NCBI RefSeq assembly: GCF_036507355.1
Contig: NZ_AP027880.1
Length of the DNA: 10,032 nucleotides
From: Escherichia coli
GTDB taxonomy: Bacteria > Pseudomonadota > Gammaproteobacteria > Enterobacterales > Enterobacteriaceae
Direction: 5' to 3' (one strand)
Positions 5,735 to 6,986 of this stretch are shown piece by piece. Every line of letters begins with the position of its first letter. The stretch's first letter is position 1. Both the position numbers and the translations under genes were made by a program. The notes under the pieces are model-generated. The model did no database searches, was not told where the DNA came from, and saw nothing but the letters and a program-made list of their open reading frames with translations.

Positions 5735-6088
5735 CATGGAATCGGATCCCGGTCGCCGGCCGGGGATTCCTTCAACGTGTAATCGGTCACGCTAGAAAGC
5801 CATAGGACGCGCTAGGAGCGCCGCACCGGCCGGGCCGCTACCTTCCCCCTCCCCTGCCCTAAAGAACGCCGCCACGGGCTGCCAGCGCAGCCGTAGGCGT
5901 ATCAGATTACACGTGCCCCCCGGCCTCTTTTGGTGCTTTCCACCTATCAGCCCGCAACCAGGTCAAAGGAGATCCACGACACTGGCCGCCAGCTCTCTTC
6001 CCTGCCGAGCCTGCCGGCCGGTAGGCCGGCCCATCGCCGGCGCAGCCGGCGCTACAAAACGCTTCGGCCGCTTGCGGCCGTCCGATTA

Positions 6089-6143
6089 GCCGGAGGGGGA
6101 GCCGCCGCCGCAGGCGGTGGGGGAACCCCGCAGGGGTGCCCCA
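6089..6143. repeat. 55-bp GC-rich direct repeat, copy 2 (identical to 2024..2078), immediately upstream of the Rep_3 initiator RBS
   Basis: Exact 55/55 identity with copy 1. Confidence 0.9.
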
Positions 6144-6188
6144 AGGGGGGCGACGTCGCGGAGGGCCGCAGGCCCGGAGGTTGTCAGG

Positions 6189-6986
6189 ATGGCAGGGACG
6201 AAGCGGGAGCAAATGGCCCTGGCGCACAAGGCGCAGGGCTACGACGTGGCCGACGTGGAGCGGCCAGCGAGGGAACGGTGGGTGACGATGAGCAATGCGC
6301 TCACGCGGGCAGGCCACGGCCTGACGCTGGCCGAGAAACGCATCGTGGCCGCTGCGGTGTCCAAGCTGGGCAGCCGCCGCGTGCTCAAGCCCGGCGAGGT
6401 GCCGCGCACCAAGATCACCGCTGCCGAATATGCCGAGACCTTCGAGGTCGATATGAACACGGCCTATGACCAGCTCCAGGGCGCGGCCAAGCAGCTCTAC
6501 AACCGCTCGATCACGTTCTACGAGCCAGCCCACAAGCGCAACGGCAAGCCGCTGCCGCCGACGCGGGTGCAAATGCGCTGGGTGGGGTCGGTGAAGTACC
6601 AGGACGGCGAGGGCTGGGTCGAGCTGGCGTGGTGGCCGGATCTGCTGCGCCACCTCACCGGCCTGCAACGGCAGTTCACGACCTACCAGCTCCAGCAGGC
6701 CAGCGCCCTGCGCTCGGGCTACTCCTGGAAGCTCCTGGAACTGCTGATGCGCTTCGAGTCGACCGGCTGGGCCGAATACACCATCGAGGACTTCAAAGCC
6801 TCGATGGACGCGCCACCGAGCCTCAGTGACTTCGGCCAAGTGAAGCGCCGGATCATCGATCCTGCGGTCAAGGAACTGACCGAGAAGGACGGCTGGCTGA
6901 TCCAGTGGCAGCCGATCAAGGCGGGCCGCAAGGTCAAGGCGCTGCGCTTCACCTTCATGCGCGATCCGCAGGGGCGGCTGCTGTAA
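6189..6986 (+). CDS. repA: Rep_3-family plasmid replication initiator (pPS10 RepA-like winged-helix initiator); start uncertain (ATG 6189 with GGAGG RBS, alternatives GTG 6279 / ATG 6288)
   Basis: Recalled family motifs: …VTMSNALTRAGHGLTLAEKRIVAAAVSKL…, MRWVGSVKYQDGEGWVELAWWPDLLRHLTGLQRQFTTYQLQQ…, …DFGQVKRRIIDPAVKELTEKDGWLIQWQPIKAGRKVKALRF. The track ORF 6117..6986 begins inside the 55-bp repeat and is probably over-extended. Confidence 0.8.
   Translation: MAGTKREQMALAHKAQGYDVADVERPARERWVTMSNALTRAGHGLTLAEKRIVAAAVSKLGSRRVLKPGEVPRTKITAAEYAETFEVDMNTAYDQLQGAAKQLYNRSITFYEPAHKRNGKPLPPTRVQMRWVGSVKYQDGEGWVELAWWPDLLRHLTGLQRQFTTYQLQQASALRSGYSWKLLELLMRFESTGWAEYTIEDFKASMDAPPSLSDFGQVKRRIIDPAVKELTEKDGWLIQWQPIKAGRKVKALRFTFMRDPQGRLL

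Follow-up and report, generated by a model that had tools for sequence, protein, structure and literature searches.

Which origin, if any, does a Rep_3 initiator use when no recognisable iterons lie beside its gene? The question is raised by a stretch of 10,032 nucleotides from Escherichia coli (hereafter the window), which represents nearly the whole of a ~10 kb plasmid known from metagenomes of gut and sewage as well as from isolates of E. coli; the ~150 bp of the circle that are missing fall within a 156-bp autotransporter repeat array. A preliminary description had proposed that the initiator might be orphaned, that its origin might be cryptic or located elsewhere, or that it might use a 55-bp repeat. 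The comparisons described here favour the first of these options: with a probability of about 0.85, the plasmid would be a fusion with two replicons in which Rep_3 is orphaned, its own origin having been deleted and RepA_C replicating the molecule.

The rep_3 gene and its surroundings

The presence of a Rep_3 initiator gene, as first described, is borne out by Pfam: the ORF 6117..6986 (+ strand) matches Rep3_N (E 4e-36, 124.8 bits) and Rep3_C (E 3e-17, 63.3 bits), above the respective gathering cut-offs of 22.4 and 21.1 bits. The span of 5930..6986 originally given to the gene is correct at its end but not at its start, since 5930..6469 is an ORF in another frame. Homologue alignments and the gene calls on >20 metagenome contigs place the start at ATG 6189, and the intact coding sequence (6189..6986, + strand) encodes 265 amino acids plus stop, with WH1 (Rep3_N) and WH2 (Rep3_C) domains. 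The relatives examined share ~62-92% amino acid identity with it, in addition to metagenomic plasmids of the same cluster, and the Rep of Paracoccus aminovorans pIII reaches 91.7%. With 265 amino acids, against 249-278 in the relatives, the protein is a full-length member of the Rep_3 family, and the alignment reveals zero unique substitutions at columns invariant in 8 relatives. The gene combines, as a mosaic, segments resembling pIII and segments resembling X. taiwanensis, and the variant start of its WH2 domain is common to the X. taiwanensis Rep. A GGAGG Shine-Dalgarno sequence, read from the letters at 6177..6181 (+ strand), precedes the ATG by 7 nt. The intact frame and this strong Shine-Dalgarno sequence could, as a counterpoint to an orphaned state, mean continued use of the gene. 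No sigma-70-like promoter was detected in 5400..7200 by a simple consensus scan of this DNA of 65% GC, and a terminator-like hairpin at 5705..5735, upstream of rep_3, is predicted to block + strand read-through toward the gene.

The absence of iterons near rep_3, also noted in the preliminary description, was confirmed over 5400..7200 by three repeat-search methods. Neither a repeat finder nor TRF detected a tandem array in that interval. The mismatch-tolerant direct-repeat search that had been suggested was carried out with a chain detector (>=3 copies of 12-20 nt, <=30% mismatch, spacing 15-60 bp), which found no iteron-like chain above chance in 5700..7100. As a control, the detector recovered the iterons of 6 of the 8 relatives and the array at 2175..2271 of the window; the two Xylella plasmids that it missed contain only two iteron copies each, visible by eye. 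No AT-rich stretch lies by rep_3, the minimum GC of any 50-bp segment in 5400..7200 being 0.50, and DnaA-box-like sites, absent from this region, occur in the window only at 2098, 2217 and 2274. The pIII iteron has zero matches in the window with up to 3 mismatches allowed. A position matrix trained on the iterons of 23 relatives likewise located no cognate iteron anywhere in the window, its best score being 8.4 bits, compared with >=17.1 bits for the training iterons and an average top score of 10.0 for random sequence. Ahead of the gene, an operator of inverted half-iterons or an autoregulated promoter is absent, and a deletion junction stands there instead. Hence tandem iterons, cognate iterons, an AT-rich region with a DnaA box and an autoregulated promoter, as expected of a functional Rep_3 iteron replicon, are all lacking. 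A search of the whole window against Rfam (E<=1) returned no RNAI, ctRNA or other replication-control RNA, solely chance-level matches on palindromes at 5626..5731; the PLSDB label of a sibling record, 'ColRNAI_rep_cluster_1998', conflicts with this result.

Two sets of shorter repeats were considered as iterons and discarded. The weak repeats at 6192..6251 are part of the rep_3 reading frame itself and are kept as coding sequence in pIII. The ACAGCGG motifs reported earlier are real: the pattern YMCAGCGGKCA, although chosen after seeing the data, occurs at 6999 (+), 7048 (+) and 7100 (-), against 0.09 occurrences expected. These three ACAGCGG(G/T)CA motifs, two direct and one inverted (6999..7110), are located where the convergent rep_3 and mobA genes meet, in the gap and over the gene ends. 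Their arrangement, with spacings of 49 and 52 bp, one copy inverted and positions in hairpin stems, was the ground for discarding them, and the matrix comparison found them unlike the iterons of Rep_3 relatives. The RNA fold at these motifs is no better than that of shuffles (z -1.05).

The origin of the relatives and the junction upstream of rep_3

In every relative examined a DnaA box, an AT-rich region and two to four 21-bp iterons ending in TTTTTCCGG(T) are found directly upstream of rep. The iterons of eight plasmid relatives, of the form NTG[CA]C[TA]TTTTTCCGGT, are positioned roughly 90-200 bp ahead of rep together with the DnaA box and the AT-rich region, and the metagenomic plasmids L029-L031 have the same layout; in another, L025, a small ORF separates iterons and rep. 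The X. taiwanensis plasmid, whose Rep has the WH2 start variant of the window, still has TTTTTCCGGT iterons. An autoregulated promoter with inverted half-iterons precedes rep in pIII, X. taiwanensis, pXF5823 and L029. The comparison with homologues, which the preliminary description had recommended, thus revealed a standard origin in the relatives that is absent from the window, so that the refuting outcome named there, a standard origin at this place, did not emerge.

The missing segment measures 0.28-0.33 kb, and in the pairwise alignment 557..833 of pIII is without counterpart. The homology of the window to its relatives extends through the 56-bp GC-rich element (the repeat described as 55 bp) and 37 further bases, and then skips to the ribosome-binding site and the ATG. 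This remnant of the ancestral origin flank (6145..6181, + strand) ends at the junction CCCGGAGG / TTGTCAGG-ATG. It is near-identical to L029 and L030, which are rep-mobA-traD metagenomic plasmids, with one mismatch over ~37 aligned bases. Beyond this flank L029 and L030 continue for ~328 bp, comprising a hairpin, the AT-rich region, 3 iterons and the operator, before reaching ...CCGGAAAGGTGTCAGTT-ATG; when the window is aligned to L029, homology runs to CCCGGAGG and the next element is the ATG. The junction falls at a short CCGGAGG / CCGGAAAGG repeat and recurs unchanged in at least 12 independent contigs, drawn from genome assemblies as well as metagenomes.

A loss of ~0.3 kb between the short CCGGAGG / CCGGAAAGG repeats would have removed three iterons along with the DnaA box and the AT-rich region, as well as the promoter and operator, and would have left the ribosome-binding site and the intact rep_3 frame. 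While the absence of the origin is directly observed, the mechanism and timing of its deletion are what we infer from the alignments, and the microhomology junction is deduced from relatives that stand in for the exact ancestor.

The second replicon, the 56-bp element and the fusion

A second complete replicon, such as would be expected in a fusion plasmid, is present on the same molecule. It contains a DnaA-box-like sequence, TTTTCCACA (2098..2106, + strand), whose counterpart in Agrobacterium pAt2 is a perfect TTATCCACA, followed by an AT-rich region to 2170 (GC 0.49 in 2101..2300). Four iterons of the GGGGGTCCGATTTAACG type (2175..2284, + strand) were found by TRF, by the chain detector and in the sequence, where a fifth, degenerate copy was read at 2398..2416. 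The adjoining genes, all on the - strand and assigned by Pfam, are repA of the RepA_C family (2447..3442, 331 amino acids, E 9e-20), a ribbon-helix-helix parB-like gene (3470..3727) and parA (3729..4379), and the order of the partition genes is the same in pAt2. A query with the origin plus repA matched 454 plasmid records, and most among the matches listed cover both origin and repA. The RepA_C origin and repA are carried by pAt2, where tblastn detects no Rep_3. The suggestion that the Rep_3 origin is cryptic or elsewhere finds no support here: the only array, at 2175..2284, belongs to RepA_C and is kept in pAt2 without Rep_3. RepA is most likely the initiator of the replicon that maintains the plasmid.

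The GC-rich repeat is 56 bp long, and its two copies are 100% identical and in direct orientation. Copy 1 (2023..2078, + strand) marks the left edge of the RepA_C origin; copy 2 (6088..6143, + strand), upstream of rep_3 at a distance of 45 bp, marks that of the origin which Rep_3 formerly had. The two copies have in common a 2-nt variant found in no other copy. In Paracoccus pIII, a Nitrotoga plasmid, pAt2 and pBBR1 the element likewise comes first, followed by DnaA box, AT-rich region and iterons. It occurs beside or near initiator genes annotated as four different kinds (pBBR1 Rep, Rep_3, RepA_C and 'replication initiator protein A'), and therefore it is not a Rep_3-specific site; its use by Rep_3, as once suggested, finds no support in these occurrences, among them plasmids such as pBBR1 that lack Rep_3. 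Outside the plasmid lineage, a distant BLAST of 5634..6087 retrieved the 56-bp element alone, with ~20 preceding bases in some records. Folding of the 56-bp element as single-stranded DNA gave no special structure (z -0.39), and our literature search found no usable description of this element or of a pMATVIM-7-type origin.

The arrangement of these modules suggests that the plasmid arose when two smaller ones fused. The first would have been a mobilisable Rep_3/MobA/TraD plasmid of the Paracoccus pIII type, and the second a plasmid of ~4.06 kb that had, besides RepA_C and ParAB, a resolvase and an origin of its own, corresponding to 2023..6087 of the window. Each would have had the 56-bp element at the edge of its origin. 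The RepA_C module is bounded by the identical direct repeats (2023 and 6088), and its flanks keep the succession known from pIII: a traD remnant, the 56-bp element, the place of the former Rep_3 origin, rep, then mobA and oriT. Relative to pIII, the RepA_C module is an insertion at the element. The Rep_3-derived half includes mobA, a MOBQ-type relaxase gene (7079..8599, - strand; Pfam MobA_MobL), and its segment 7837..8830 is 88% identical in nucleotides to pIII. Because the identical direct copies of the element sit exactly at the module boundaries, fusion probably took place through homologous recombination within it. In exact-protein look-ups all contigs were fused, and neither a free circle with RepA_C only nor a Rep_3 copy retaining iterons was found among them.

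Fate of the orphaned initiator and known counterparts

Two finished plasmid records from E. coli isolates carry a damaged rep_3. In AP027824 an 81-bp segment (6254..6334, + strand) coding for DVERPARERWVTMSNALTRAGHGLTLA, with GACG(C)TGGCCGA repeats on either side, is deleted in frame; in AP027811 about the same stretch is absent through a near-identical gap, so that the loss amounts to 81 bp or slightly more, 27 or more codons. The lost peptide, VTMSNALTRAGHGLTLA, covers the beginning of the Rep3_N domain, with residues that do not vary among relatives, and its loss removes the conserved N-terminal motif of WH1. Rep_3 therefore appears dispensable, on the indirect evidence that sibling plasmids with this damage exist in isolates. 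Copies of the plasmid are ~99.9% identical plasmid-wide, and therefore neither decay of rep_3 nor purifying selection on it is measurable; a single substitution in rep_3 was seen among them (6432 G>A in L036). The 257-residue 'variants' of Rep_3 in L037 and L039 were discarded as different start calls on identical DNA. The identical Rep_3 protein was found on 47 contigs in 88 collection blocks, and the RepA of the plasmid in 110 blocks.

Alternative explanations have to be weighed against this evidence. That the origin is missing merely because of faulty assembly or of the cut defining the window is scarcely credible. Although assemblies can collapse GC-rich repeats and ~150 bp of the circle are outside the window, those bases belong to the autotransporter array, the same sequence upstream of rep_3 (0-1 mismatch, up to 600 bp) recurs in eight independent contigs, full-circle concatemeric scaffolds included, and the two finished E. 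coli plasmid records are also without an insertion between the 56-bp element and the start of rep. It is very unlikely, too, that Rep_3 uses a cryptic, non-canonical origin, for which the ACAGCGG(G/T)CA triplet, GATTACACG at 5583, 5776 and 5905, the 56-bp element or the RepA_C origin region would be the candidates. ACAGCGGKCA and GATTACACG are indeed commoner than chance, the 56-bp element is close to rep_3 and also at the other origin, and the best iteron-matrix match, albeit sub-threshold, falls inside the RepA_C array at 2190. However, this match is below random expectation, the candidate motifs are non-tandem, some of them inverted, with no adjoining AT-rich region or DnaA box, and the 56-bp element also belongs to origins without Rep_3 (pBBR1, pAt2). 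Moreover, a non-canonical target is difficult to reconcile with the 92% identity to the pIII Rep and the WH2 variant in common with X. taiwanensis, both of which use TTTTTCCGGT iterons.

Another explanation is that Rep_3, orphaned in cis, is kept for action in trans, either by driving replication of a co-resident origin-only or related Rep_3 plasmid or by binding the iterons of incoming relatives and so interfering with them (incompatibility or exclusion). The intact ORF with all conserved residues and a good ribosome-binding site, the wide occurrence of the identical protein and the abundance in metagenomes of small Rep_3 plasmids whose iterons are of the cognate TTTTTCCGGT type agree with such a role. 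Nevertheless, it is improbable: at ~99.9% identity throughout the plasmid the conservation of rep_3 carries no signal, two siblings have lost the WH1 motif, the deletion took the native promoter and operator, and upstream there is no promoter-like site and a terminator-like hairpin stands in the way of read-through. Also improbable is a combined proposal in which the orphan is retained as a trans-acting factor that maintains co-resident plasmids, origin-only or related small Rep_3 ones, or sabotages incoming relatives via their TTTTTCCGGT iterons, while the 56-bp block would be a portable origin module that doubles as a homologous docking site for the fusion of unrelated plasmids.

The orphaned initiator is therefore the option of the preliminary description that best withstands scrutiny: the origin of the relatives is replaced by a junction, no cognate iteron exists in the window, a second replicon is available and siblings tolerate the 81-bp deletion. 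Without cognate sites Rep_3 would be unable to initiate in cis, and the RepA_C origin and ParAB would replicate and partition the plasmid. The rep_3 gene would then be a dispensable passenger, undecayed in this copy and damaged in siblings. For annotation and typing this means that a Rep_3 call on this widespread plasmid would mark no working replicon, and that any prediction of host range, incompatibility or copy number should start from the RepA_C origin. The plasmid would be a clean, mappable case of a fused plasmid shedding a redundant origin, the proposed steps being fusion through an origin element that both parents had, then loss of the cis sites in a ~0.3-kb microhomology deletion, and after that the first damage to the initiator gene, as seen in siblings. 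The 56-bp block, near four kinds of initiator and in the pBBR1 vector origin, may deserve separate study.

The RepA_C half of the plasmid has close counterparts. From 2023 to 4379 the window has the order of other RepA_C (PF04796) replicons: 56-bp element, DnaA box, AT-rich region, GGGGG(N)CGATTTA(A/T)CG iterons, repA, ribbon-helix-helix gene and parA. The replicon is 89% identical in nucleotides to that of Agrobacterium tumefaciens pAt2 and ~76% identical to those of Pseudomonas and Enterobacterales RepA_C plasmids; it differs from them in being fused to a Rep_3/MobA module. In RK2 and RSF1010 a GC-rich segment adjoins the AT-rich region of the iteron origin. The 56-bp element resembles the GC-rich segments of iteron origins in the order of GC-rich block, AT-rich region and iterons, and is unlike them in being one near-invariant sequence across four annotated kinds of initiator. 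The PromA origin of pMOL98, as cited in PMC9499019, combines 19-bp iterons with a 27-bp AT-rich and a 29-bp GC-rich region.

Regarding the Rep_3 half, both winged-helix domains are present as in the canonical iteron replicons of pPS10 RepA, pSC101 RepA, R6K pi and F RepE. The nearest relatives, P. aminovorans plasmid III, the Candidatus Nitrotoga plasmid, Xylella pXF5823 and pPLS206 (62-92% identity), have a DnaA box, an AT-rich region and 21-bp iterons before rep. The window departs from the canonical replicons and from these relatives in having no iterons, AT-rich region, DnaA box or operator of inverted half-iterons. The closest parallel is pD36-4 of Acinetobacter baumannii, where, according to the account in PMC7315799, RepA1, a Rep_3 protein without iterons, was judged to be no longer responsible for replication. 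Both plasmids have two initiator genes, one of them an intact Rep_3 gene with no iterons within or around it (Hamidian & Hall 2018, via PMC7315799). The second replicon of pD36-4, RepA2, is described there as another Rep_3, with iterons, whereas that of the window is RepA_C. An orphaned initiator after plasmid fusion is thus an ordinary outcome and a situation of a known kind, of which pD36-4 RepA1 is an example; unlike pD36-4, the plasmid described here allows the origin deletion to be mapped against close relatives and has siblings in which rep_3 itself is damaged.

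The plasmid and its Rep_3 gene

The 10,032 bases of the window are almost a complete small plasmid, matching E. coli plasmid NZ_AP027824.1 (10,103 bp) at 99.9% over the full length except for a single 81-bp difference and about 150 bp within a repeat array; the same plasmid turns up again, ~99.9% identical, on numerous contigs from metagenomes and genome assemblies. Genes assigned by Pfam are, on the plus strand, an autotransporter (31..1245, running on from a 156-bp repeat array at 9087..10032), a ParE-type toxin-antitoxin pair (1348..1711) and the Rep_3 gene (6189..6986), and, on the minus strand, repA of the RepA_C family (2447..3442), a ribbon-helix-helix gene (3470..3727), parA (3729..4379), a serine recombinase (4558..5310), a small lipoprotein (5202..5456) and a MobA/MobL relaxase (7079..8599). 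The autotransporter passenger region (9087..10032 plus 1..230) is a tandem array of ~6 copies of 52 codons at 94% identity, and its copy number differs among contigs, complete genes encoding 371-445 aa, which looks like repeat-number variation in a surface protein. PLSDB/MOB-suite typed NZ_AP027824.1 as 'ColRNAI_rep_cluster_1998' and non-mobilizable. This automatic typing looks misleading, because no RNAI or other ColE1-type RNA was detected by an Rfam scan of the window, yet the relaxase and an oriT region like that of Paracoccus aminovorans plasmid III (pIII) are both present.

The presence of a Rep_3 initiator is solid (Rep3_N, E 4e-36; Rep3_C, E 3e-17). The start at 5930 proposed in the preliminary description belongs to an overlapping ORF in a different frame; the Rep_3 frame is open from GTG 6117, and homologue alignment and gene calls on metagenome contigs point to ATG 6189 as the start codon, with GGAGG ahead of it at 6177. 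The protein is an ordinary Rep_3 member, identical to BED24748.1 of another E. coli isolate and present on 47 contigs; it is intact, and no substitution unique to it falls at an invariant position. Since the plasmid copies are ~99.9% identical over their full length, this intactness is uninformative on selection.

Absence of the Rep_3 origin

The closest plasmid relative, pIII (4,158 bp; rep, mobA, traD; 94% nt and 92% aa identity), carries upstream of rep a GC-rich element (505..556), also found in the window; then come a perfect DnaA box (TTATCCACA) and AT-rich DNA, next three iterons of 21 bp, GTGCCTTTTTTCCGGT (684..745), and last a promoter region with inverted half-iterons, before the ATG at 834. 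This architecture recurs in other plasmids: a Candidatus Nitrotoga plasmid (3 x GTCCCTTTTTTCGGGT), Komagataeibacter pGE3, Caballeronia p2 and Novacetimonas pKHC110_1 (three iterons each), Halomonas pIGAnt2 (four), Xylella taiwanensis pPLS206 (2 x CCTGACATTTTTCCGGT), X. fastidiosa pXF5823 (two) and the metagenomic plasmids L029-L031, of the same 90% protein cluster (3 x CCTGAC[AT]TTTTTCCGGT). Hence, the subfamily has a well-defined cognate iteron, with the end TTTTTCCGG(T), roughly 90-200 bp upstream of rep. In pPLS206 (records L012/L006, 32.6 kb) a gene annotated 'replication protein RepA' lies beside the Rep_3 gene and is divergently transcribed; the Rep_3 replicon there retains its cis elements, as it keeps a DnaA box and an AT-rich region along with two iterons.

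No iterons, AT-rich stretch or DnaA box adjoin the window gene. The earlier observation that iterons are lacking beside the initiator was borne out by a direct-repeat search and TRF, which found none near the gene, and by a custom chain detector allowing mismatches, which at five settings returned nothing beyond chance in 5700..7100. The same detector recovered the arrays of six of eight relatives and the window's own array at 2175..2271, missing the two Xylella plasmids, which have only two copies each, spotted by eye. No AT-rich stretch occurs in 5400..7200 (lowest 50-bp GC, 0.50), and no DnaA box lies near Rep_3, the sole near-matches in the window being at 2098, 2217 and 2274. Even with up to 3 mismatches allowed, the pIII iteron matches nowhere in the window, and a position matrix trained on 23 iterons from relatives reached 8.4 bits at best over the window, against at least 17.1 for real iterons and a mean top score of 10.0 +/- 2.4 on random sequences. 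The cognate sites have therefore been lost from the entire window, not relocated.

Alignment of homologues, suggested earlier as a way to reveal a standard origin, does so in pIII and L029, while in the window a junction stands in its place. Against pIII, homology covers the GC-rich element and returns precisely at the ATG, pIII 557..833 having no counterpart. Against L029, it runs 37 bases further (6145..6181, one base different from GGGGGGCGACTTCGCGGAGGGCCGCAGGCCCGGAGG) and then ends; beyond this point L029 has ~328 bp, comprising a GC hairpin, an AT-rich stretch, three iterons, ATCCACA and an operator, leading to ...ACCGGAAAGGTGTCAGTT-ATG, where the window has ...CCCGGAGGTTGTCAGG-ATG. Two similar short motifs, CCGGAGG and CCGGAAAGG, bracket the junction, the pattern that a microhomology deletion would give; from these relatives we infer that such a deletion removed the Rep_3 origin.

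The other repeats named earlier proved real but can be accounted for. The '55-bp repeat' is a perfect 56-bp direct repeat (2023..2078 = 6088..6143), and the weak repeats (6192..6251) fall within coding sequence that is conserved in a homologue. The three ACAGCGG motifs (6999..7110) are indeed commoner than chance; as ACAGCGG(G/T)CA, two direct and one inverted, they occupy the 92-bp convergent gap between rep_3 and mobA and the mobA 3' end, and probably form hairpins where the two convergent genes end, but the fold is no better than that of shuffled sequences. In pIII rep and mobA overlap, so this gap has no counterpart. Four exact copies of GATTACACG occur at 4511 (-), 5583 (+), 5776 (-) and 5905 (+), with 0.9 expected allowing one mismatch; the latter two, inverted relative to each other, stand 280-410 bp upstream of the rep_3 gene, and the others lie within inverted repeats (4470..4526 and 5576..5631; 56-57 bp, identical bar one 1-nt indel) that border the recombinase and lipoprotein genes, one of them within the parA upstream region. 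Within each inverted repeat lies a palindrome of 30 bp, perfect or nearly so (CGGCTTTTGGATTG-CA-CAATCCAAAAGCCG), with a half-site that resembles hix/gix invertase sites. Inversion is unsupported, because orientation is the same in every contig examined; a recombinase site or a par operator could be the alternative.

The RepA_C replicon and a probable plasmid fusion

At window positions 2023..2420 the 56-bp element is followed by TTTTCCACA, which resembles a DnaA box, and by AT-rich DNA with a GC content of 0.49; four GGGGGTCCGATTTAACG iterons come next, with one more copy in degenerate form, and repA lies beyond them, its 3' end first. Agrobacterium tumefaciens pAt2 shares this origin-repA unit (89% identity), where TTATCCACA is perfect, together with the same repA, ribbon-helix-helix and parA genes, and tblastn found no Rep_3 in it. 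Therefore, the window iterons are those of RepA_C, a replicon self-sufficient elsewhere. The origin-plus-repA query matched 454 plasmid records and, among the matches listed, most span both parts.

Followed along the pIII map, the window has oriT and mobA, rep_3, the former Rep_3 origin and the 56-bp element and, onward round the circle, a traD remnant (1708..1908, 97-98% to pIII), the 56-bp element and the RepA_C origin. Two identical direct copies of the element delimit segment 2023..6087 (4,065 bp; origin, repA, parBA, recombinase, lipoprotein and spacer), the arrangement that would result from recombination between a RepA_C plasmid of 4.06 kb and a pIII-like one within their common element. 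Both copies carry a 2-nt variant (GCCGCCGCCGCAGGCGGT) absent from all seven other copies compared, which would fit this history or later gene conversion. Fusion would have preceded loss of the Rep_3 origin, because a Rep_3 plasmid without it could not survive alone. The mobilisation half also seems to be eroding: a metagenomic copy (ERZ28660665 scaffold_4440; L019/L042) lacks nearly all mobA (window 7099..8585), contig L021 has mobA broken into two ORFs, and L036 keeps a 120-aa TraD ORF of which the window has the remnant only.

The promiscuous GC-rich origin block is the by-product of most interest. About 50 bp of it (GGAGGGGGAGCCGCCGC..GCGGTGGGGGAACCCCGCAGGGGTGCCC) are nearly invariant in 74 plasmid records, with copies, besides those in the window and pIII, in pBBR1 (1490..1543), L003 (2534..2585), L005 (5884..5934), L022, L023 and L024. 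It marks the outer edge of the origin in pBBR1, pIII, the Nitrotoga plasmid and pAt2, with AT-rich DNA at most ~100 bp beyond; a DnaA-type box also follows it in all but pBBR1. In Burkholderia p1 it lies near a gene annotated 'replication initiation protein'. Its ssDNA gave no significant fold, and no description was found in the literature searched.

Standing of the Rep_3 initiator

We consider Rep_3 very probably (about 0.85) an orphaned initiator, an option already raised in the preliminary description: the cis origin of its relatives is missing, the cognate sites are gone and a complete RepA_C replicon is present. A cryptic origin on the plasmid is unlikely, since the candidates are non-tandem, some inverted, and none adjoins AT-rich DNA, and the protein is too near relatives with defined iterons for a specificity switch; the X. 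taiwanensis Rep, with the same variant of the second winged-helix domain (WH2), still uses TTTTTCCGGT iterons. Use of the 56-bp element as the Rep_3 site, also proposed earlier, is not supported, the element occurring widely and in origin regions of pBBR1, RepA_C and Rep_3 plasmids alike, as well as near a 'replication initiator protein A' gene in Xanthomonas citri. Assembly error is excluded by a junction identical in independent assemblies. A role of the orphan protein in trans, for which no positive sign emerged, is a slight possibility.

In the finished plasmid AP027824, window positions 6254..6334 (81 bp, in frame), flanked by GACG(C)TGGCCGA repeats, are missing, and about the same stretch, slightly longer, is missing from the lower-quality, noisier AP027811. 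The loss takes out DVERPARERWVTMSNALTRAGHGLTLA, which includes the first Rep3_N residues and a motif nearly invariant among all relatives; evidently, a crippled Rep_3 does not keep a plasmid from persisting. Expression of the gene is itself doubtful, because a scan of 5400..7200 turned up no sigma-70-like promoter, the same strand carries a terminator-like hairpin upstream (5705..5735) and the native promoter was lost together with the deleted segment.

Rep_3 iteron replicons comprise the pPS10, pSC101, R6K and F types, and the window gene lacks every cis element by which they are recognised; it therefore does not belong among the working Rep_3 replicons. Its situation is a further example of that already described for bireplicon plasmids with a Rep_3 gene devoid of iterons, such as Acinetobacter baumannii pD36-4. 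RepA1 (Rep_3) of that plasmid is described as having no iterons inside the gene or within 500 bp and is deemed no longer responsible for replication (PMC7315799). Beyond that case, the window adds a mapped deletion, a fusion signature and siblings with a damaged gene.
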